Positions 9,154-20,049 of a stretch of 32,000 nt of DNA are shown piece by piece. Both the position numbers and the translations under genes were made by a program. The notes beneath the pieces are model-generated. The model ran no database searches, was not told where the DNA came from, and worked only from the letters and a program-made list of their open reading frames with translations. The stretch comes from an archaeon. GTDB lineage: Archaea > Asgardarchaeota > Thorarchaeia > Thorarchaeales > Thorarchaeaceae. The stretch lies in contig JAJRZD010000025.1 in assembly GCA_024275415.1 (NCBI GenBank), positions 30,001 through 62,000 on the forward strand, written 5' to 3'. Each line of letters begins with the position of its first letter. Position 1 is the first letter of the stretch.

Positions 9154-9858
9154 TCAGACCAAGATCATACTCAGAATCCATGGAGACATAAGCCATAACC
9201 CAAGTACTATGAGTAACAGTCCAACGGCAATCTCAATCACATGAGCTGCATTAGCAATACGTGTGGCCATACGGTTCCTTGCTTCGCCTGTGACGAGGGC
9301 GATAGCAAGATAGGGGATTGCCACACCTATTGACAGCCAGATGAAAAGTGAAACAGCCAGTAAGGGGTTAGCTAATGCACTGACACCAAATACCAGTGGT
9401 AATCCAAGAATAACGACAGGAGCCGTGCAAGGTGCTGCAATCAATGCGTAGCTGAACCCAACAACGAAAACGCCAACCAAACCCTTTGGAGTGTCAGGGT
9501 TCTTCATGGAAAGGCGAGTCAACCCAATCTTTTCACGTAACTTCTGGGAGAGTGTCAGTATTCCCACAAAAACAATGATCGCACCAAGGGCAGCCTGAAT
9601 CTGTGTATAATATTGAAGTAGAAAGTAGGTTGATATGACATAGGATATCAGTGCAAATAGCCCAAGTGATGCAAGGATACCTGAAATAAGTGCACCAGTA
9701 ACGACCACACTTTTTTTCCTACTATCCTCGGATTGGAGACTTCGTATCAGGAATAGTGGCAATAATGGGAAAAGACAGGGAGAGGTAGCAGCATATAGTC
9801 CCGCCATGAAAGCGACCATATGCTCAATGACTACCTCTGCGACTATTTGTGCCAACAT
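9154..9858 (-). CDS. ccdA: CcdA/DsbD-family transmembrane thiol:disulfide electron transporter
   Basis: About 6 TM helices with the two conserved Pro-Cys motifs (TSPCLFPLLP and AAPCTAP). Confidence 0.9.
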   Translation of the reverse strand: MLAQIVAEVVIEHMVAFMAGLYAATSPCLFPLLPLFLIRSLQSEDSRKKSVVVTGALISGILASLGLFALISYVISTYFLLQYYTQIQAALGAIIVFVGILTLSQKLREKIGLTRLSMKNPDTPKGLVGVFVVGFSYALIAAPCTAPVVILGLPLVFGVSALANPLLAVSLFIWLSIGVAIPYLAIALVTGEARNRMATRIANAAHVIEIAVGLLLIVLGLWLMSPWILSMILV

Positions 9859-9867
9859 CGTTGCCGA

Positions 9868-10467
9868 TCATACTCCCAGTTCGACAAGCGTTGCATTGAA
9901 TTCTACGAATCTCCATGTTCCTTCGCGAATCCACCGGAGCGTGCCGGTCTGGTCAATAAGGACAAGGGTCGGAAGATACCGCAGTTTGAGGAAATCGTCT
10001 GCAGGGCTATCTATGGCATAACCCATGTCCCAAAGAAGGCCGTACTCGTCCTTGTAATCCCGCAACATTTGCTCTGTGTCACCCAATGCTGTCGACAGCT
10101 GCACAAAGCACAATCTATCAGAACCGAACTCATTGAATATCTTGACATTATCTGCATTCTGGTATTCACATGCCGGGCACCATGTTGCGAAGAACTCCAG
10201 GATGAGGAATTTGCCATAGGCATCAGAAATCGAAAAGTTGTCCACATCGACCATGAGGAATTCCCAATCAGGGACACTGATATTGTACGATGCCAAGTCC
10301 TGATCTCTGGGGATGAAATCAGGCACACCATCAGTGGTAGTGGTGGTAGATTCTGTAGTAGTTGTCGTGGTTGTGGGCTGTGAGTTCAGAACCACACTCG
10401 TACCAACAACACCACCAACAACAATTCCTAAAACTAGCACGACGACCAGTATCTGTCTTGTTTCCAT
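9868..10467 (-). CDS. Membrane-anchored TlpA/ResA-like thioredoxin
   Basis: N-terminal TM, Thr-rich linker, EFFATWCPAC and YLPTLVLIDQTG. 9 nt upstream of ccdA. Confidence 0.88.
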   Translation of the reverse strand: METRQILVVVLVLGIVVGGVVGTSVVLNSQPTTTTTTTESTTTTTDGVPDFIPRDQDLASYNISVPDWEFLMVDVDNFSISDAYGKFLILEFFATWCPACEYQNADNVKIFNEFGSDRLCFVQLSTALGDTEQMLRDYKDEYGLLWDMGYAIDSPADDFLKLRYLPTLVLIDQTGTLRWIREGTWRFVEFNATLVELGV

Positions 10468-10710: not shown

Positions 10711-12414
10711 ATGCCAAATCCAATGAATCCACTGATAGTGCAATCGGACAAATCAGTCCTGCTGGAAGTGGACAATCCCAGATACGAGGAAGCAAGAGAT
10801 TCACTGGCTAGGTTCGCAGAGCTAGTCAAAAGTCCAGAATATGTCCATACCTATCGTGTTACACCTTTAAGCTTGTGGAATGCTGCTGCGATGGGGATGA
10901 CTGCCCGTGAGGTTGTCGATGCCCTTGAGGAGTATGCAAAATATCCAATACCAGGAAACATATCTAGAGAGATTGTCGAGTACATGAGCAGGTATGGCCA
11001 GATCACACTGCATGCAATAGGAGATGACCTTCTCCTTGAATGTGCAGACGAAGATTTGGCAGCTGAAATCTGGCAAAGCAGGAAGCCCAGAGAGTACCTT
11101 ATTGAACCAGTCGATGAGAGAACGTTCCTAGTCGATCCCATCAACCGCGGGAACCTGAAACATGCACTACTGGAGATTGGACACCCAGTCGAGGATCTTG
11201 CAGGGTATGCCGAGGGTGAACCTTTGCATTTCGAGCTGCGAGATGTGACACTTGAAGGGAAACCATTCGCTCTAAGAAAGTACCAGAAGGAGGCGGTGTC
11301 TACGTTCCATGCAGGCGGGGGAATCAGAGGTGGGTCTGGCGTCATTGTCCTACCATGTGGAGCTGGGAAGACCATGGTCGGTATAGGTGCTATGCATGAA
11401 CTCCAAACATCAACAATCATCCTGTGTCCCAATGTGGTTGCTGTTAGACAGTGGGTAAAGGAACTCCTCGACAAGACCACCCTTACTGCAAATCAGATTG
11501 GTGAGTACACTGGAGAGGACAAGTCGATTCGCCCTGTCACTGTGGCGACCTACCAGATACTCACTTGGCGCAAGTCTCGGGATGATGAATTCGAGCATTT
11601 CCATCTCTTTGATGCCCGGAACTGGGGACTGATAATCTATGATGAGGTGCATCTCCTACCAGCCCCAGTCTTCCGTGTCACCGCTGCAATCCAGGCAACA
11701 CGACGGTTGGGATTGACAGCCACTCTAGTTCGTGAAGACGAACGAGAAGAGGATGTCTTCAGCCTGATTGGACCGAAACGCTATGATATGCCATGGAAGC
11801 AGCTTGAGGATCAAGGATGGATTGCCACAGCGATATGTTACGAAATCCGGATTGACCTTCCCGATAAGATGCGTCGGAAATATGCCTTGGCTGAAGATAG
11901 GAAAAAATACAGGATTGCAGCCGAGAATCCCATAAAGATACAGCTCATCAAGGAACTCATCGACTATCACAAGGATGACAACGTCCTCATCATAGGAATG
12001 TACCTTGACCAGCTCAAAATGATAGCTGATGAAATCAAGGCGCCTCTAATCACGGGCAAGACTACCAATGAGGACAGGCAAAAACTGTATGAGGCATTCA
12101 GAGAGGGCCGTGAGAAGATACTTGTCGTATCTAAGGTTGCAAACTTTGCTTTGGACCTTCCTGACGCCAATGTAGCAATACAAGTATCGGGAACATTCGG
12201 GTCGAGGCAGGAAGAAGCACAACGACTGGGAAGGATCCTGCGCCCAAAGTCAGATGGTAGCTTTGCAAGGTTCTACTCGATTATCACAAAGGACACGAGG
12301 GATATGGACTTTGCTGCAAAACGCCAGCTGTTCCTTACCGAGCAAGGATACCAGTACGTCATCGCCTCAGCGGATGAAGAGATTTGGAGAAAGGACCCTC
12401 AGAGCTTCTTCTAG
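10711..12414 (+). CDS. xpb: XPB/Rad25/Ssl2 DNA repair helicase with the N-terminal p52-binding (PF13625-type) domain
   Basis: PLIVQSD...FAELVKSPEYVHTYRVTPLSLWNA, LRKYQ, SGVIVLPCGAGKT, DEVH, LGLTATLVRED (RED motif), SKVANFALDLPDAN and QEEAQRLGRILR. Confidence 0.96.
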   Translation: MPNPMNPLIVQSDKSVLLEVDNPRYEEARDSLARFAELVKSPEYVHTYRVTPLSLWNAAAMGMTAREVVDALEEYAKYPIPGNISREIVEYMSRYGQITLHAIGDDLLLECADEDLAAEIWQSRKPREYLIEPVDERTFLVDPINRGNLKHALLEIGHPVEDLAGYAEGEPLHFELRDVTLEGKPFALRKYQKEAVSTFHAGGGIRGGSGVIVLPCGAGKTMVGIGAMHELQTSTIILCPNVVAVRQWVKELLDKTTLTANQIGEYTGEDKSIRPVTVATYQILTWRKSRDDEFEHFHLFDARNWGLIIYDEVHLLPAPVFRVTAAIQATRRLGLTATLVREDEREEDVFSLIGPKRYDMPWKQLEDQGWIATAICYEIRIDLPDKMRRKYALAEDRKKYRIAAENPIKIQLIKELIDYHKDDNVLIIGMYLDQLKMIADEIKAPLITGKTTNEDRQKLYEAFREGREKILVVSKVANFALDLPDANVAIQVSGTFGSRQEEAQRLGRILRPKSDGSFARFYSIITKDTRDMDFAAKRQLFLTEQGYQYVIASADEEIWRKDPQSFF

Positions 12415-13247
12415 ATGGTATTGTCGTTCTTTGGCGGACTTGCCTCGTAGGATGATATCTTGCGGGCTATGGCCTTGAGTTCATCAAGTCCAAGCCTACG
12501 AATGCCCTGCTTGCCGACCTCAAAAGTGACCCACATCGGATTGTGCGGGGCCCCTTTCACTTTTGTGACTCGGAACTGTTTGATCAATACACCAGCCCCC
12601 TCAAAGACTGGTTCGTGCCGGGTGTCGATGATGATATCGCTACTGTAGGTAATCATGTCGTCGTATGCAGCGAACTGCTGGAGTCCGGTGTGGTATGTTG
12701 CCCAGCACGGTATGTATAGGTTCTTGCAAAATGTCGCACGCCATGCCTTGATAGCATTGACTGCTTTGAATGGATGAGACTGGAGAAAAAGCTCCGTTAT
12801 GCTATCGACAAAGATACCTCCAAACTCCATGTTATTTTCCAGTATCAACCCATGAATCGCATCACTGATATGATCTGGTTCTGTCGGTTCTCTGACGAGA
12901 GTTACATGGTCATACTTGGCAGTTTTTCGAAGGATTTGGCTTGAGAAGCAGTCTACCAGATGGATAAGTCCTGACTCAAGAATCTCTTTGTAGTCCAGTC
13001 CCAGATAGCATAGGTTCTGTAATACAGAAACAGGTGTGTCTTCAAAGCATACATAAATGGCTTTCTTACCGGATCTCATAATATGCCGAACCATCTCATT
13101 CAACAAGACAGACTTGCCGCCTCCGCCAGGACCACGGATCACCCCGAATGCGTTCGTTGGGAGTCCTTCAGGCACCTCGGTATCTAGGATGTCAATCCCC
13201 GTCCGGTATAATTCCCGTCCTTTTGCGAGCATATCTTCAAGACTCAA
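12411..13247 (-). CDS. Single-domain KaiC/RAD55-like RecA-superfamily ATPase
   Basis: TGIDILD, Walker A GPGGGGKS, YVCFED, Walker B IFVDSI, SDIIID and RVTKVKG. TTG 13247 preferred as start (GGGGG upstream) over 13367. Confidence 0.87.
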   Translation of the reverse strand: MSLEDMLAKGRELYRTGIDILDTEVPEGLPTNAFGVIRGPGGGGKSVLLNEMVRHIMRSGKKAIYVCFEDTPVSVLQNLCYLGLDYKEILESGLIHLVDCFSSQILRKTAKYDHVTLVREPTEPDHISDAIHGLILENNMEFGGIFVDSITELFLQSHPFKAVNAIKAWRATFCKNLYIPCWATYHTGLQQFAAYDDMITYSSDIIIDTRHEPVFEGAGVLIKQFRVTKVKGAPHNPMWVTFEVGKQGIRRLGLDELKAIARKISSYEASPPKNDNTI

Positions 13248-13401
13248 TTCAAACCCCCTTAAATAACGAACATCGTAGTAGAATAATGTATTGCCTGTAT
13301 CGAGTGGCACATAGTGAAAACAGACACAACCACTCGATTTATATGGGAATAGTATTTCATATGTCATAATAGGATATATCGAAACCGGGTGTGTTCAAGT
13401 T

Positions 13402-13644
13402 ATGAAGATCATGAATGGTAGTGAGTCTGCGGCTGGAACCAATCCTATGCTTCTCAAGATACGGCATGCAGCATTGAACAAGGCGTTTACCCAAATCCGA
13501 GAGAAACGTTTCAATCTAGATGAGTCAAGAACCAACGGATGGATATCCGAAGAAGAATATCAGAAGGAACTTGTGAACCTCATTCTTGAAGGGAATAAAA
13601 TCCGAATGGAGCAGAAACAAATAGAAGAATACCTGAAGCTATAG
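13402..13644 (+). CDS. Small helical/coiled-coil hypothetical protein
   Basis: 80-aa charged helical sequence that fills the gap between opposite-strand genes. Confidence 0.6.
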   Translation: MKIMNGSESAAGTNPMLLKIRHAALNKAFTQIREKRFNLDESRTNGWISEEEYQKELVNLILEGNKIRMEQKQIEEYLKL

Positions 13645-14595
13645 CCAAAAGCTCAGAAAATCTTCAAAAAGTTTCAATTTGGAGTTCACATAGTCAAGGA
13701 TTAACCTCTTCTGTAATCGACCAAGTAGGACTGGAGCAAGCTGTTTCGTTTCAATATCACATAGTATCTGAATGCTCCATTTTATGACGCTGCAAAGTCC
13801 AAGGACAATCATCCATCTCCAATGCTCTGTTGAGCATCCTTCTGCCTTCTTGGACATCAGTCCCTGAAGGGTAGAGGAAGGATGTTGGACAAACAGATAC
13901 GCCCAATCGTAGTAACGGCTGATGCCGCAACAGTCTTCGAGGTCTATGAGGATTGCACGATGCTTTTGGAAAAGGACATTCTTTTCGGAAAGGTCGCCAT
14001 GTGATGTCACTGGATTCCAGTGTTCGGTACCAGACACCATGACAGACCTTTGTACAAGCCGACAGAACTCCATGACCGTGCCCATGAGGGTGTCTGAAAA
14101 CGCACAATCATGATTTTGGATAATGTCATCAAGAGATGATGCAATCTCCATGAGGAAACCATGAGCGTCACGGTATATTGGGATTGAGTGGAGGGTGATA
14201 GCAGATAGTCTGCTAAGAGAGTTACGTAGTATGTGAGAGTCTTCAAGAGTGATCTCAAATGGCGATTCATATACGAGCCCGTTGATATATTCTAAAACCA
14301 GCATAGATAGACCGTATTCTTTTGAAAGGACGCCATAGAAAAGCGGACGAGGACACAGGTCGTGCTTTGAGATGGCATTGTGAAGATAGTAGAGCCGTTC
14401 AAGGTCGCGGTTTCCCATGGAGCGCGGAATCTTTAGGACGAAGGATGGAATACCATCCACGTAGCCCAAAAGATTGACTGTGGACCAACCGTCCAATATG
14501 ACAGGATCCAAGTGAATCTCACCTGCCATCTCTAGGACGGATGATAGTTTCTCTTCAAGCATTTCTTTCGTATGTCCGTAATAATCCCATCCCAT
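13639..14595 (-). CDS. Aminoglycoside phosphotransferase/choline kinase-like protein
   Basis: FVLKIPR, LVLEYING, HGDLSEKNVL (Brenner motif), LIDLE and YDWA. Confidence 0.82.
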   Translation of the reverse strand: MGWDYYGHTKEMLEEKLSSVLEMAGEIHLDPVILDGWSTVNLLGYVDGIPSFVLKIPRSMGNRDLERLYYLHNAISKHDLCPRPLFYGVLSKEYGLSMLVLEYINGLVYESPFEITLEDSHILRNSLSRLSAITLHSIPIYRDAHGFLMEIASSLDDIIQNHDCAFSDTLMGTVMEFCRLVQRSVMVSGTEHWNPVTSHGDLSEKNVLFQKHRAILIDLEDCCGISRYYDWAYLFVQHPSSTLQGLMSKKAEGCSTEHWRWMIVLGLCSVIKWSIQILCDIETKQLAPVLLGRLQKRLILDYVNSKLKLFEDFLSFWL

Positions 14596-14605
14596 ATATC
14601 GAAGA

Positions 14606-14935
14606 ATGCGGGATATCTACTTAAAGAATCTTGAACGATTATACGATATGAAGGGAAAGGACATTCTACTGATGCTATCACATCTGTTTAGGAAATGTGG
14701 AAGGTCTGTTTCATTGGGCGATGCGATCCATCACCTTTCATTTGAATGGAGGTATGGCGAACCCACAAAGATTAGAAAGATCCTTGCAGTAGCTGTTGAG
14801 AATGAGATGATTTCATTTGCTGATGGTAGAATAACTGCAGAATTCATATTCAATATCCAGAAACTGCATCCGAATCAGGCCGACATCTTGAGTAAGCAGC
14901 AAATCAAGAAAGAAGATGTGATACCCCTCTATTAG
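14606..14935 (+). CDS. DUF2240-like archaeal protein
   Basis: LSHLFRKCGR...LSFEWRYGEPTKIRKILAVAVENEMI...EF pattern matches my recollection of DUF2240. Confidence 0.55.
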   Translation: MRDIYLKNLERLYDMKGKDILLMLSHLFRKCGRSVSLGDAIHHLSFEWRYGEPTKIRKILAVAVENEMISFADGRITAEFIFNIQKLHPNQADILSKQQIKKEDVIPLY

Positions 14936-16053
14936 GTAGTGTCGACCATATTAGCAATTGACGCAAGCAACGCTGTGAGATGGATGTGAGGGTTCTTTCC
15001 CTGAATCATCCTATAGTCTATTTCTGCGATCCTGTCAATGATGTGTCGCACTGTATGGGGTTCTAGAGGACGTTTAGCAATCTCACGTTGAACCTGAGCA
15101 ATGACCTCTTGAGGAGTGTATTGTTCCATAGTAAGTAGGTTTCTAAGCGCTTTACGTGCCTTGAGATACTTGTTATCCAATGCTTGTGATATCATGCTCC
15201 GCACTCCTGATGTCAAAGGAGTGTCAGCAAACGCATAGACTATGTCCTCGGTAATGGTCTTTCCCGAGGCGGCACACATTTGGAGCAAGTTCAATGCCCG
15301 ACGCATACTGCCGTTGGACTCGCGGATGATGGCATTCAACCCGTGCATATCAATATCTACCGATTCCTTCTCTGAAACCATAGACAAGAGCTGTGTGATA
15401 TCTTCAGGGGTAGCTGCCTTGAAATGGACAGTAATACAGCGAGATATGATTGCTGGGTTCCAACCAGCGAGGGAGGGGGTCACTAGAACGAACCTGCATG
15501 TATCTGAGTATATCTCCATCGTCCTCCTGAGTGCCTGTAACATGTTGTTGTCAAATGCATCCGCCTCGTCAAGAACCAGTATCTTGACCATATCACTACC
15601 GACAGCGGCAGTAGAAGCAAACATCTTCACCGCCTGATGAAGCAGCTGGCTTCTGTTAGGAATCCCAGTCATTCCTTTCGCCTTTAGCTCCGCTTTTGCC
15701 TCGCGATAGACTACAGACATGTACTCGTCCAGCTCAGAGCGAGCTGCCCTGTCCAGCTTTGCCAATGCTTGGATTTTTCGTTTCGCAGCAGAGATTGTGA
15801 ATGAGCGCAGGTCGCGAATATTGAGCCATTTGAAGTTGGATGTGAATTCCGACTCTAACACATGTCTTGCATAGGCATATGCAGCCAGAGTCTTTCCCGT
15901 ACCAGAAGGGCCGTACAGAAGCAGATGAGGAACCGTCTTGGATTCGGCAAGGGATCTAAGTTGATTGATCGCTGTTTCCTGCCCAATGAACTCGTCCCAG
16001 GTAGTTGGCTGGTATTTTATGCTCCAGAGAACTGGTTCCAATGAATACACCAA
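14932..16053 (-). CDS. rfcS: Replication factor C small subunit, divergent, with a large helical insertion
   Basis: WSIKYQP, IGQE, PHLLLYGPSGTGKT, KILVLDEAD, ALRRTME, SRC arginine finger, GSMRRALNLLQ and the C-terminal collar ending HLTALLA. Confidence 0.9.
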   Translation of the reverse strand: MVYSLEPVLWSIKYQPTTWDEFIGQETAINQLRSLAESKTVPHLLLYGPSGTGKTLAAYAYARHVLESEFTSNFKWLNIRDLRSFTISAAKRKIQALAKLDRAARSELDEYMSVVYREAKAELKAKGMTGIPNRSQLLHQAVKMFASTAAVGSDMVKILVLDEADAFDNNMLQALRRTMEIYSDTCRFVLVTPSLAGWNPAIISRCITVHFKAATPEDITQLLSMVSEKESVDIDMHGLNAIIRESNGSMRRALNLLQMCAASGKTITEDIVYAFADTPLTSGVRSMISQALDNKYLKARKALRNLLTMEQYTPQEVIAQVQREIAKRPLEPHTVRHIIDRIAEIDYRMIQGKNPHIHLTALLASIANMVDTT

Positions 16054-16195
16054 GTGGAAGTGTCCGACCTGCCAAAATAAGGTTACCTTTTAGTTTATCA
16101 GTAAATGAAGTCTAATAGATTGACCTTAACCGTAATGGTCAAATACGCTCGAACGCTGGGCGCTTGTTTGCAAATTCTCAATTCGAGGTTTCGAA

Positions 16196-17899
16196 ATGGC
16201 AAAAGAATCCCTAGAGAAAGAATTGGAACATATGTTCAGAGAAGATCTTGTCGTTGCCTGCCAATATTGGGATATAGATATCAGCAATAGTTCGTCAGGG
16301 AAGGAACTCACAGTGCTCCTGGCAAAAAAAATGAAGCAAAAGGAATCCCGTGAGAGAATATTCTCAAGCTTTACTGACCAAGAAAAGGATCTACTAGGTC
16401 TCCTGACATTGAGCGGGGGAGCGATGAGCTATGATAGACTAAAGCCATTTCGTAAGATATACAGCTATGGACAGCTGAATCAGACAGAAAGGGATCTCAG
16501 GAAAAAAGGGTTGATCATCCGAAGAATGATGTCACGTCTCACCGAGTTCGGACGTGAAGTCGCAGAATTCAAGATTCTCGATTTCTTCATCCCACACCTG
16601 AAGAAATACTTCTCCGCAAAACCCGAGCTAACAAAAGAGAAGCCAAAGAAAGCTCGTAATTTGGTGAACGAACGCGATTCGCTCTTGCTCGACACATTGT
16701 TACTGACATCATACATCGCAAAGAATGAAGTCAAGATGACCAGCTCATGGGAGTTTCCGAAGAGGGAGATTGAACACATAAAGAAAGGCATGTCAAAAGC
16801 TCGCGATGATAGGTTCGAGCTTGTACAGCGGATTGCACGGAAAGCAGGCGCGTATGAGATTGTCGAGAAGGATAGGGTTGTTCAGGGCAAAGTGAAAGAT
16901 CTTTTTGCAGGAACACAAGAACAGGTAGCCACAAAGTTCCTGTTGTCGGCTGTGGGTAGGACACGAGCTATCTGGGCGACTCCCGACCAGCCTACAGAGT
17001 ACACTCTCAATCTAATCATCTGCCGCCTCCGAGAGGCCAACACAAAGGATTGGATCAGTGTAACGGAGATGCGTGACTGGATTCGAAGCGAACTCTTCAT
17101 AGACGGGCAACCACTGAAATGGATACAAATCACAGATGAGCGGGTGAGTATCGCCCTAGAAACACCAATCCTGCTGGGTCTAGTAGAAGGGGCATATAAA
17201 GGGAAAAATCTTCTAGCTGTGCGTCTTACCGACATTGGTGGTGCCGTCATTGCGGGACTTCCAAGGGAAGAAGTGTCAGGTCAGGAAACATTCATCGTTC
17301 TTCCAAACTTTGAAGTGACGGTGTTCTCAGCAGAAATGGACTATTACAAATTATATCGACTCATGCTCATCACAGAGCCCATCAAGACCGACGTTGTAAG
17401 TACATTCAAACTCACAGAATCGTCAATATTCCATGCAGTCGAACTTGGATATCGAGAGAATGATATCATCGCATTCTTAGAAAGTGAGAGCTCAAAGCCA
17501 ATTCCCGCGAACGTCATCAGATCGATAAAGGATTGGACTTCACAGACCACCTTTGCTACGTTATCTGTGGTCACCCTATTTGAAACCGAGTCAGTGCAGG
17601 AAATGGAGAACCTTCTCTTGATGCCTGACTTCAATAGGCACCTTGTAAAACGGGTTGGACCTACGGCGGTCATCATAAAAGGGGACATTGAGGAGTTCAT
17701 CGATGAGATGCAAAAGCACAAGTGTCATGTAACTCGATCTGATGTCCAAGAGAGGGAAGATGAAGAAGCTTCAAGCACTCGTGTTTCTGAGCAGGCATTG
17801 CTATATGGTGATAGTCATGGTGCGGAAATCCCTGACAATTGTTCAGGATGTCCAGCATTCCAATCATGTAATAGGGTGTTGAAGAGAAAGACAATATAG
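16196..17899 (+). CDS. XPB-associated protein with an XPB/Ssl2 N-terminal-like domain (p52/Tfb2-like architecture)
   Basis: N-terminal helical/wHTH region, then FIVLPNFEV...TFKLTESSIFHAVELG...LESESSKPIPANVIRSIKDW, which aligns to the XPB N-terminal domain. C-terminal CxxCx5C. Confidence 0.8.
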   Translation: MAKESLEKELEHMFREDLVVACQYWDIDISNSSSGKELTVLLAKKMKQKESRERIFSSFTDQEKDLLGLLTLSGGAMSYDRLKPFRKIYSYGQLNQTERDLRKKGLIIRRMMSRLTEFGREVAEFKILDFFIPHLKKYFSAKPELTKEKPKKARNLVNERDSLLLDTLLLTSYIAKNEVKMTSSWEFPKREIEHIKKGMSKARDDRFELVQRIARKAGAYEIVEKDRVVQGKVKDLFAGTQEQVATKFLLSAVGRTRAIWATPDQPTEYTLNLIICRLREANTKDWISVTEMRDWIRSELFIDGQPLKWIQITDERVSIALETPILLGLVEGAYKGKNLLAVRLTDIGGAVIAGLPREEVSGQETFIVLPNFEVTVFSAEMDYYKLYRLMLITEPIKTDVVSTFKLTESSIFHAVELGYRENDIIAFLESESSKPIPANVIRSIKDWTSQTTFATLSVVTLFETESVQEMENLLLMPDFNRHLVKRVGPTAVIIKGDIEEFIDEMQKHKCHVTRSDVQEREDEEASSTRVSEQALLYGDSHGAEIPDNCSGCPAFQSCNRVLKRKTI

Positions 17900-17914: not shown

Positions 17915-18949
17915 ATGACGAAAGCCATCCTACCTCACGAACTAAGAGGACGATTTCTAGGCGTTGGAAGTGTTGTTGAGGAATGGGAAGGAGAAGCGTC
18001 GGAGTACATCCCAAAGATCTCTTTACCTTATGCATATCAAAGACCTGCCAGGCCGGAAGAGGATATGATTCGTCAATTTGGGAGTGTGCTTACGGGATTC
18101 GAGGAGAAGGGCACATTCGTCTTTGAAACAGGATTTGACGAGTATCAAAATATGATCCGAGGCGAGGAGGACATACTTCCTGCCGAACAGTATTTTGAAT
18201 CACTTTACAAGTTACCGAAACACGGACCGTTCAAATATCTGAAAACTCAGGTGACATCACCAGCCACCATGTGTTACAGCATACGAGGGGAAGATGGACG
18301 ACAGCATCTCACACCTCAAATGTTCAGGTTCTTCTCATCACTCATCTCTCGAATAATGAAGGGCTTTGTTGCTCACTTTGCCGAATCCGTGGAAACTCTC
18401 ATGGTCTGTCAGGATGATCCTGCATTTGGGTTTGTGAAAGACATGATCGAATCGGAGAATGCTCCGGGGCTCTCCGCTCATCAGGTTATGAGAGTGATTG
18501 ACCGAATATTCCCTTCGGAAGTAATCCCTGCTTACCACTACTGCTACGATTGGAGAGTATTGATGGATAAAGGTAGGCACCTGATATGGCAAAGTAAGCC
18601 AAAGGTCGTCCACATTGATACAATAAACTATCCTCCTGAAATAGATGCCGGGCAAGGTGAACTTATCAACAAATTCCTACAGGCAGGAGGGGGCATCGCA
18701 CTTGGAGTCATCGCGAACGTGGACAGTGCATTCACAGAGCTGGTCATCTCATACTACGAAAAATCGCTCAAAAAGACGATTTCCTTATTTGTAAGGGCCG
18801 GCGTAAATATTGACCTGCTGAAAGAGAACACAATGGTTTCCACTCAATGTGGTCTTTCAGGAGCGACCCCAAATCTATCGCGTCAAATCCATTCCCATGA
18901 TCAGACATATTCTGAGATACTGGAACAAATATACAACTCGTTCCAATGA
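17915..18949 (+). CDS. Single-barrel core cobalamin-independent methionine synthase-like methyltransferase (MetE/URO-D fold)
   Basis: KTQVTSPAT, CQDDP, HYC (HxC zinc motif), GGGIALGVI and STQCGL (third zinc ligand). Confidence 0.7.
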   Translation: MTKAILPHELRGRFLGVGSVVEEWEGEASEYIPKISLPYAYQRPARPEEDMIRQFGSVLTGFEEKGTFVFETGFDEYQNMIRGEEDILPAEQYFESLYKLPKHGPFKYLKTQVTSPATMCYSIRGEDGRQHLTPQMFRFFSSLISRIMKGFVAHFAESVETLMVCQDDPAFGFVKDMIESENAPGLSAHQVMRVIDRIFPSEVIPAYHYCYDWRVLMDKGRHLIWQSKPKVVHIDTINYPPEIDAGQGELINKFLQAGGGIALGVIANVDSAFTELVISYYEKSLKKTISLFVRAGVNIDLLKENTMVSTQCGLSGATPNLSRQIHSHDQTYSEILEQIYNSFQ

Positions 18950-19203: not shown

Positions 19204-20049
19204 GTGGAAAAAGAAAGCAATCAGCCAGGACCCATTATGAGATTCATCCAGGATTACCGTCTGAAGATGCTTGTTCCAGAATTGCTTGTAGTGTTTGGCG
19301 TCTGGTACATGTTACCTGATTCGCTGACTACGAATGTCTATCTGATATACATGGATTTCCTAGGGCCGCTGGTATATGCCTTGCAACCGCTGTTCTTCAT
19401 TCCTAGTGGAATATTGGCATTCCTTACAGCATTCACATTGCACGGGATATACCCCCTTGATAACTATCATGAAGGAAAGATCCCTGACCTCCCGAGGGGT
19501 GCTGTCATAATGATCATCATCTCGTTCATCTTTCTCCCATGGTTGGTCTTGATGCAGATGATCGGCTACTACATGACAGAAGCGACAGAGTACATCAGCA
19601 GGAACCCATTCTGGGAGCGAGTGGAGAGCTTTGGCGATCTGCTTTTCTATGCAGGAGCCATGTTCTTCGTCGGGCTGCAATGGTGGCTTCTCATCCCAGT
19701 GTTCTTCCTTAGTCAGGGAGTCGATGGGATACACAAGATTGCTCACCATGAAACATCCAGTGAGAAGATAACATGGATATTCTATTTCCTCTGGCCTATC
19801 ACTATACCCATCTTCTTCCAACCAGTAGAAATCTTTGCAATGGCGGCAATCTCAATCCCGGCATTTGCATTCTACGGGTATATTAGGCCATATTATACCT
19901 ATGTCAACGCCGTTCATACTCTGACCTTTGCAGCACTGGTCATTGTATCTCTCGTGCTTGCACCCTACTTGCCCCTCCTGAATGTGTGGCTTCCAGGGAG
20001 TATCCCTGAGATAATGCCACCTAGAATATTCCCAGATATTGGATGGTGA
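19204..20049 (+). CDS. Polytopic membrane hypothetical protein
   Basis: About 7 hydrophobic segments. GGTGTGA upstream of the GTG start. Confidence 0.75.
   Translation: MEKESNQPGPIMRFIQDYRLKMLVPELLVVFGVWYMLPDSLTTNVYLIYMDFLGPLVYALQPLFFIPSGILAFLTAFTLHGIYPLDNYHEGKIPDLPRGAVIMIIISFIFLPWLVLMQMIGYYMTEATEYISRNPFWERVESFGDLLFYAGAMFFVGLQWWLLIPVFFLSQGVDGIHKIAHHETSSEKITWIFYFLWPITIPIFFQPVEIFAMAAISIPAFAFYGYIRPYYTYVNAVHTLTFAALVIVSLVLAPYLPLLNVWLPGSIPEIMPPRIFPDIGW

Follow-up and report, generated by a model that had tools for sequence, protein, structure and literature searches.

XPB and its partners

In eukaryotic TFIIH, XPB forms a submodule with p52 and p8 (human ERCC3, GTF2H4 and GTF2H5; yeast Ssl2, Tfb2 and Tfb5; PDB 6NMI, 8EBS, 7O4I and 6TRS); the N-terminal domain of XPB and a homologous "clutch" domain in p52 make an interface pair in that complex. 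Archaea are credited with less: two reviews of 2026 (PMC13153155, PMC13024598) allow them XPB and XPD and none of the other TFIIH subunits, and have archaeal XPB working with Bax1. We deal here with a 32,000-nucleotide stretch of archaeal DNA ("the window" in what follows: positions 30001-62000 of contig C1, in a genome of 3.5 Mb, 127 contigs and 92.9% completeness) in which the gene for an XPB that has kept its N-terminal domain is followed, after 3.8 kb, by the gene for a protein that resembles p52. The window, in our judgment, probably encodes an archaeal version of the TFIIH XPB-p52 submodule: a long-form XPB and a non-enzymatic, p52-like partner.

How does this locus compare with the described systems? 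With eukaryotic XPB its helicase shares the N-terminal domain and the superfamily 2 (SF2) core with its RED motif, but not the N- and C-terminal extensions. With p52 the partner shares an array of winged helices, a clutch that is a homologue of the N-terminal domain of XPB and, at its C-terminal end, an α/β domain, but it has an additional cysteine-rich tail. Unlike TFIIH, the archaeal pair implies no role in transcription: archaeal initiation requires no ATP (PMC13153155), so that a part in it is probably excluded. XPB-Bax1 of Sulfolobus, Archaeoglobus and Thermoplasma likewise has an XPB-family SF2 motor and is a candidate archaeal DNA-opening repair machine, but its XPBs are short (~440-470 amino acids) and lack the N-terminal Helicase_C_3 domain. 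Long-form XPBs and "helicase-associated domain" genes of bacteria (Actinomycetota, Chloroflexota, Planctomycetota, Bacillota and others) and of Thermoplasmata belong to the same XPB family and have the same partner core of winged helices plus Helicase_C_3. In Thorarchaeia, however, the two genes are kept 1.7-3.8 kb apart by genes for a replication factor C (RFC) paralogue, a DUF2240-like protein and an APH-like protein; and whereas many bacterial partners run to 650-900 amino acids with a WYL domain, some of them with two tandem domains, the thorarchaeal one has a single Helicase_C_3, no WYL and the cysteine-rich tail. Lack of a p8 match, the tail, the split into separate transcription units and the linkage to an RFC paralogue are what is distinctive of this version of XPB-p52. 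Literature searches on Rv0862c, on WYL with XPB and on Tfb2 with Asgard turned up no description of a prokaryotic p52 homologue.

The nearest named relatives of the window's proteins are in metagenome-assembled genomes of Candidatus Thorarchaeota; a preliminary description, made from the sequence alone, had guessed the source to be probably an Asgard archaeon, and these relatives agree with it.

A long-form XPB

The XPB gene (10711-12414, + strand) and the gene of its putative partner (16196-17899, also +) each encode 567 amino acids, and the peptides by which the preliminary description identified them are found in their translations. XPB was said there to retain its N-terminal domain, and so it does: Pfam places Helicase_C_3 at residues 8-131 (nucleotides 10732-11103, + strand; E 2.8e-34) and also matches ResIII and ERCC3_RAD25_C, while the NCBIfam XPB model NF045503 is matched over profile positions 1-547 of 548 with 871.8 bits (cut-off 610). 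The core motifs (Walker A GAGKT at residues 217-221, DEVH at 311-314, RED at 341-343) are invariant among the aligned relatives. Among PDB sequences, yeast and human XPB are matched at 283-293 bits, N-terminal domains included in the alignment, and the short XPBs characterised from archaea (Archaeoglobus AfXPB, Sulfurisphaera StXPB2) at no more than 128-152 bits; the eukaryotic proteins are by these scores far nearer to it than AfXPB or StXPB2. Its motifs and domains are those expected of an ATPase-competent long form, equipped with the N-terminal domain that the short Bax1-associated archaeal XPBs lack.

The p52-like partner: sequence

In databases the partner goes by the name "helicase-associated domain-containing protein", and its sole Pfam match is Helicase_C_3, at residues 388-450 (nucleotides 17357-17545; E 3.5e-11). 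A second copy of the XPB N-terminal domain had been noticed at about 17290-17535: the copy is real and its placement roughly right. In the register then proposed, the XPB and partner segments give a BLOSUM62 local score of 79, which none of 2000 shuffles attains (mean 20.5, standard deviation 4.0, maximum 40). Profile and shuffle tests are used here in place of BLASTP, which, given XPB residues 1-170 and partner residues 350-520, returned only an off-register, non-significant alignment (E 0.049).

Recognising p52 itself takes a deeper profile. Set against the PDB sequences, phmmer and a profile made from thorarchaeal sequences only matched the XPB N-terminal domain and not p52; a deeper family profile matches yeast Tfb2 (E 1.2e-5) and human p52 (E 3e-5), and these alignments start ~48 positions upstream of the point at which the XPB alignment starts, inside a preceding winged helix that is absent from XPB. 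Searched with a profile, a set of 1.84 billion representative proteins yielded 2043 relatives, most of them covering residues ~305-510 and a few of them the full length. Thorarchaeal relatives score 16.7-24.4 bits on Pfam Tfb2, below its cut-off of 34.5; a Thermoplasmata relative (P0133), with 38.4 bits, is the only one that passes the gathering score. Identity is 63-81% within Thorarchaeota and 20-36% between lineages: the p52-like protein evolves much faster between lineages than XPB does.

The p52-like partner: predicted structure

An AlphaFold2 (AF2) model of the partner, calculated from an alignment of 148 rows, has a predicted local distance difference test score (pLDDT) of 90.1 and a predicted TM-score (pTM) of 0.82. 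(A technical point: a first run, with an alignment of 18 exclusively thorarchaeal rows, gave a pLDDT of 54.9, was unusable and was discarded.) Searching the PDB with this model by Foldseek, a check that the preliminary description had recommended, bears out the likeness to p52 over the whole length of the protein: the top 19 matches are all p52/Tfb2 chains (E 5.8e-11 to 1.4e-5, alignments of 339-541 columns), led by 8EBS_D (E 5.8e-11, ~530 columns) and followed by 6NMI_D, 6TRS_A/B, 7O4I_2 and others. The identity of the PDB chains as GTF2H4 or TFB2 was confirmed. XPB chains rank after them, at E 2e-5 and over 150-190 columns only.

In VIA alignments, residues 52-511 of the model are colinear with p52 residues 41-461, with 342-375 residues aligned at Z 12.8-14.3 and a sequence identity of 11-14%; the global root-mean-square deviation (rmsd) is high because of the domain arrangement of what is a beads-on-a-string protein. 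Domain by domain the correspondence is as follows. The "long helical region" that had been noted ahead of the clutch is there, and the model and VIA resolve it into an array of winged-helix domains (residues ~1-350, 16196-17245), which matches winged helix-turn-helix proteins of MarR/ArsR type (VIA Z 10-11) and is colinear with the N-terminal part of p52. The clutch, homologous by Pfam and VIA to the XPB N-terminal domain, comprises residues 361-452 (17276-17551); 92 residues of it lie on human XPB 70-164 with Z 15.7, an rmsd of 1.4 Å and 25% identity.

The clutch is followed by the "small alpha/beta domain" of the preliminary description (residues ~455-510, 17558-17725). It is present, and it makes up the second, conserved half of the Pfam Helicase_C_3 unit to which the clutch belongs; in relatives, this unit is covered from profile position 2 to 123. 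The domain is conserved in 142 of the 148 relatives; in the window protein itself, residues 450-567 have no Pfam match. A hidden Markov model (HMM) of this C-terminal domain weakly matches XPB residues ~108-157, which fits both proteins having the full 125-position Helicase_C_3 unit. Since the VIA alignments extend to p52 residues 458-461, residues ~455-510 match the position of the C-terminal, p8-binding domain of p52. The proposal that this domain stands in for p8 is accordingly to be amended. By position it is the counterpart of p52's own C-terminal domain, and the HMM, run against all open reading frames (ORFs) of at least 45 codons in the genome, finds no free-standing p8-like copy, returning only the p52-like protein and, weakly, XPB. 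Taken over its whole predicted structure, with colinear winged helices, clutch and C-terminal domain, the partner is a full-length homologue of p52/Tfb2.

What p52 does not have is the tail, residues 511-567 (17726-17896), which is specific to the thorarchaeal order: an acidic linker modelled at low confidence and then, within residues 545-567 (17828-17896), the motif C-x2-C-P-A-x2-S-C-N (C549, C552, C558), which is invariant; C510, upstream, is nearly so. Motif and upstream cysteine are kept even in a sister thorarchaeal lineage (P0124). The tail may be a knuckle binding Zn or an Fe-S cluster, as its cysteine pattern suggests.

Distribution and synteny among Asgard archaea

The pair was sought in 201 Asgard genomes drawn evenly from the phylum, 44 of them from the thorarchaeal order. 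The partner family, and with it any Helicase_C_3, occurs in 42 of the 43 other genomes of the window's family and in one sister-family genome, that is, in 43 of the 44; it occurs in none of the 157 genomes from 25 other Asgard families. Co-occurrence was another of the checks proposed at the outset. Most thorarchaeal genomes with Helicase_C_3 have two copies, XPB and the partner, and in ~38 of the 44 the two genes share a contig and a strand, at a distance of 4-9 kb.

Other Asgard lineages have short XPBs, which score 50-80 bits on ERCC3_RAD25_C as against ~170 for the window XPB, and whose genes mostly lie immediately beside Bax1. That no Bax1 gene is found near the pair had been remarked upon; the remark extends to the whole 92.9%-complete genome, in which there is no match to DUF790 (Bax1) at E 0.1, the same model giving matches in control archaea. 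Of 43 genomes in the window's family, only three contain Bax1 (G069:C63, G075:C4, G016:C202). All three have the long XPB and partner and, in addition, a short XPB with Bax1 immediately following; the two XPB systems can therefore coexist. By lineage, they are almost mutually exclusive among Asgard genomes.

The order of genes at the thorarchaeal locus is conserved: XPB, a variable KaiC-like or APH-like gene, the DUF2240-like gene, a divergently transcribed RFC small-subunit (RFC-S) paralogue, the p52-like gene and the gene that starts at 17915. In every thorarchaeal locus examined, the RFC paralogue is the adjacent divergent neighbour of the p52-like gene. This arrangement has been met before. 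Meheust et al. 2022 (BMC Biol 20:154, PMC9258230) describe, in three Asgard genomes, a family (fam18955) annotated as ERCC-3 with "distant homology to RAD25", situated beside RFC small-subunit genes in what they named a TFIIH-like gene cluster. Fam18955 is very probably the same gene as the one at 16196, the match being one of annotation and RFC adjacency; it was read there as Rad25/XPB-like and is read here as p52-like.

Could the pair be cargo, a horizontally mobile system of DNA surveillance or virus defence, as has been proposed for some bacterial XPB-like cassettes? Its patchy occurrence across domains, combined with high cross-domain identity, would suit such a system. A conserved place in the chromosome, among neighbours of housekeeping type and in 43 of 44 genomes, would not, nor would the 63-81% identity of the partner across the thorarchaeal family, and the locus has no nuclease or effector gene (no PADLOC search was made). 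We regard a mobile defence role as very improbable; the pair forms a core, order-wide locus and not a mobile element.

Relatives in bacteria and other archaea

More than 15 bacterial phyla (Hydrogenedentota, Nitrospirota, Chloroflexota, Planctomycetota, Bacillota, Poribacteria, Acidobacteriota and others) have XPBs with which the thorarchaeal XPB shares 57-65% identity along its entire length; the XPBs of Methanolliviera, of Methanophagales and of one Thermoplasmata genome are about as near to it. For Methanolliviera and Methanophagales, the long-form XPB is all that was seen of the module. At many bacterial XPB loci, one or two p52-like genes lie directly downstream, in keeping with the earlier statement that some bacteria have a similar XPB and partner; in the Thermoplasmata genome the gene for P0133 overlaps the XPB stop codon, forming an operon. 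There is, then, an XPB-p52-like module that is pan-prokaryotic, and the thorarchaeal pair is a real archaeal instance of it. (In the same Thermoplasmata genome, CP070672.1, the overlapping genes for XPB and P0133 are immediately preceded by genes for the large and small subunits of exonuclease VII [L008:4518-9233]; a nuclease link for the module in that organism is possible.)

If a full-length p52 homologue accompanies long XPB throughout an Asgard order, in other archaea and in many bacteria, the picture drawn in the 2026 reviews would need revision: the XPB-p52 regulatory pair would predate eukaryotes, and the thorarchaeal version would offer a simple two-protein system in which to study the control of XPB by p52. 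It also makes the origin of the TFIIH core directly testable by phylogeny. The present data do not single out Asgard archaea as its source.

The obvious conjecture is one of descent: that the thorarchaeal pair represents the archaeal stock from which the XPB-p52 core of eukaryotic TFIIH was inherited vertically, through an Asgard host. Both proteins are, after all, full-length homologues of their eukaryotic counterparts. The trees of XPB and of the partner, which were built without eukaryotic sequences, offer something more. The archaeal long-form XPBs make up one clade (SH-aLRT, the Shimodaira-Hasegawa-like approximate likelihood-ratio test, 96-100), and a tree that keeps all bacterial XPBs together, with the archaeal clade outside them, is better by 14 log-likelihood units, with p 0.78 in the approximately unbiased (AU) test. 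Rooting on short Asgard XPBs put the archaeal long forms deep within bacteria, as sister to Chloroflexota; the AU test gave this nesting no support, and no claim about the direction of transfer between bacteria and archaea is made for that reason. The partner tree shows a solid thorarchaeal clade and, elsewhere, long branches and poor resolution.

Other facts fit such a descent badly. Within the Asgard sample the pair is confined to a single order, and the remaining lineages have short XPBs, mostly next to Bax1. On neither NCBIfam model do the archaeal long-form XPBs score differently from the bacterial ones, those tested having 844-881 bits on NF045503 and 336-389 bits on the rad25 model TIGR00603, so that the thorarchaeal XPB is not measurably more eukaryote-like than bacterial ones: on TIGR00603 it has 361 bits and that of a second thorarchaeal lineage 389, inside or near the bacterial range of 336-373. 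The best Pfam Tfb2 score belongs to the Thermoplasmata partner, not to a thorarchaeal one. Confinement to one order, together with a likeness to bacterial XPBs at 57-65% identity, argues against a privileged route from Asgard archaea to eukaryotes, and we think direct ancestry unlikely. The preliminary description had supposed that the pair would bear on the origin of TFIIH; a bearing specifically by way of Asgard archaea is neither supported nor refuted. One may still imagine that an Asgard ancestor had the XPB-p52 core that became TFIIH's, that it was lost elsewhere, and that Thorarchaeia keep it as a minimal complex which opens DNA without Bax1 and may be coupled to the RFC paralogue. The topology with the archaeal clade outside the bacteria, being unrejected, leaves room for this scenario, to which we would give little weight.

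Does the pair act as a pair, and how?

That XPB and the p52-like protein associate is argued from three things: their strict co-occurrence, the operon form that the genes take elsewhere, and the all but perfect structural match of the clutch to the domain by which XPB and p52 pair in TFIIH. The TFIIH structures (Greber 2019, PMC6422496; Kappenberger 2020, PMC7708078) indicate how an XPB-p52-like complex might work. The clutch (residues 361-452) would pair with the XPB N-terminal domain as a pseudo-symmetric heterodimer; the C-terminal domain of the partner would contact the XPB motor, or the equivalent unit of XPB, and tune its ATPase and translocase; and the winged-helix array and cysteine-rich tail might supply contacts to DNA or to other partners. 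In Thorarchaeia, the pair would fill the place that XPB-Bax1 has in other Asgard lineages, and its cellular role is probably in DNA repair or DNA opening.

Complex prediction, with full-length XPB and partner residues 270-567, each with its own alignment, and in three runs, gave an ipSAE of 0.59 (0.58-0.60 among runs) against 0.00 for the best control; agreement in contacts between runs is 91% or more, and the partner's pLDDT is at least 71. The pass mark that is thereby reached was also reached by 58 of 80 solved complexes and by 2 of 110 mismatched pairs, but a value of 0.60 or less was given to only 7 of those complexes, and to both of the mismatched pairs. XPB-p52 being an already solved complex, the pass may mean likeness, not binding, and may reflect memory of solved TFIIH; it lends weak support to the predicted association. 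Several observations weigh against an XPB-p52-like submodule. The window protein does not match Pfam Tfb2 (PF03849) even at E 10, and the genome as a whole has no above-threshold match to Tfb2, Tfb5 (p8, PF06331) or Ssl1 (p44, PF04056), the three Pfam models used (p34 and p62 were not searched for); two XPD-like helicases are encoded elsewhere in it. XPB and the p52-like gene are separate transcription units, with three to five genes between them, most of which are read from the other strand, and the closest conserved neighbour of the p52-like gene is the RFC paralogue and not XPB. No incision nuclease partner was identified, so that a role in repair stays conjectural.

Some of these observations suit another arrangement, in which the p52-like protein, with its several winged helices, serves the RFC paralogue as a DNA-binding factor or adaptor, in clamp loading or replication-coupled repair, and has no more than an ancient domain in common with XPB, which it does not bind. 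The RFC neighbour is invariant, and the same adjacency was noted by Meheust et al.; XPB is transcribed separately, and the prediction of its binding is weak. Why, then, should XPB with an N-terminal domain and the partner strictly co-occur, linked across the whole thorarchaeal order, and why should both be absent from the remaining Asgard genomes searched? The two genes, moreover, are overlapping or contiguous in Thermoplasmata and many bacteria, where no RFC gene is close by, and the clutch, which fits the XPB N-terminal domain to 1.4 Å, is of the kind that makes the interface pair in TFIIH. An RFC-bound function independent of XPB seems to us improbable. An XPB-p52-like submodule remains the reading that we prefer.

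Other genes of the locus

Between XPB and the p52-like gene, the window has first a KaiC/RecA-like ATPase (12411-13367, - strand), a variable gene found in only 1 of 6 related loci checked, and then an APH-like protein, of phosphotransferase fold (13639-14595, -), which is present between the pair in most thorarchaeal loci and is poorly conserved (22-29% identity). The small DUF2240-like protein (14606-14935, +) is kept in this position in all six related loci. The RFC small-subunit paralogue (14932-16053, -; 372 amino acids) is transcribed away from the p52-like gene. It is divergent: with 233-264 bits it falls short of the NCBIfam cut-offs (303-317). Contig C43 encodes another RFC-S, of more canonical type. 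The 142 bp that separate the RFC-S paralogue from the p52-like gene (16054-16195) presumably harbour a shared promoter.

Downstream of the p52-like gene, 15 nucleotides after its stop codon, begins the gene for a 344-amino-acid protein (17915-18949, +) that has no Pfam or NCBIfam match. Its position is kept in all loci of the thorarchaeal family with enough flanking sequence, at 39-53% identity; because of this and of the short gap, it is probably co-transcribed with the p52-like gene. Its feature neighbours in the ESM Atlas are unnamed clusters and clusters resembling the C-terminal domain of MetE and URO-D, at a score of 0.93; a fold of MetE/URO-D type is possible, as a lead only. Further on, a 281-amino-acid ORF without family assignment (19204-20049, +) is conserved near the p52-like gene in thorarchaeal loci, and its counterpart in a sister lineage (L007:8595-9479, 40% identity) lies directly downstream of the p52-like gene there. 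On the other side of the locus, just upstream of XPB, a DsbD-type transmembrane and AhpC/TSA-thioredoxin-like pair (9154-10467, -) resembles an ordinary thiol-redox module.

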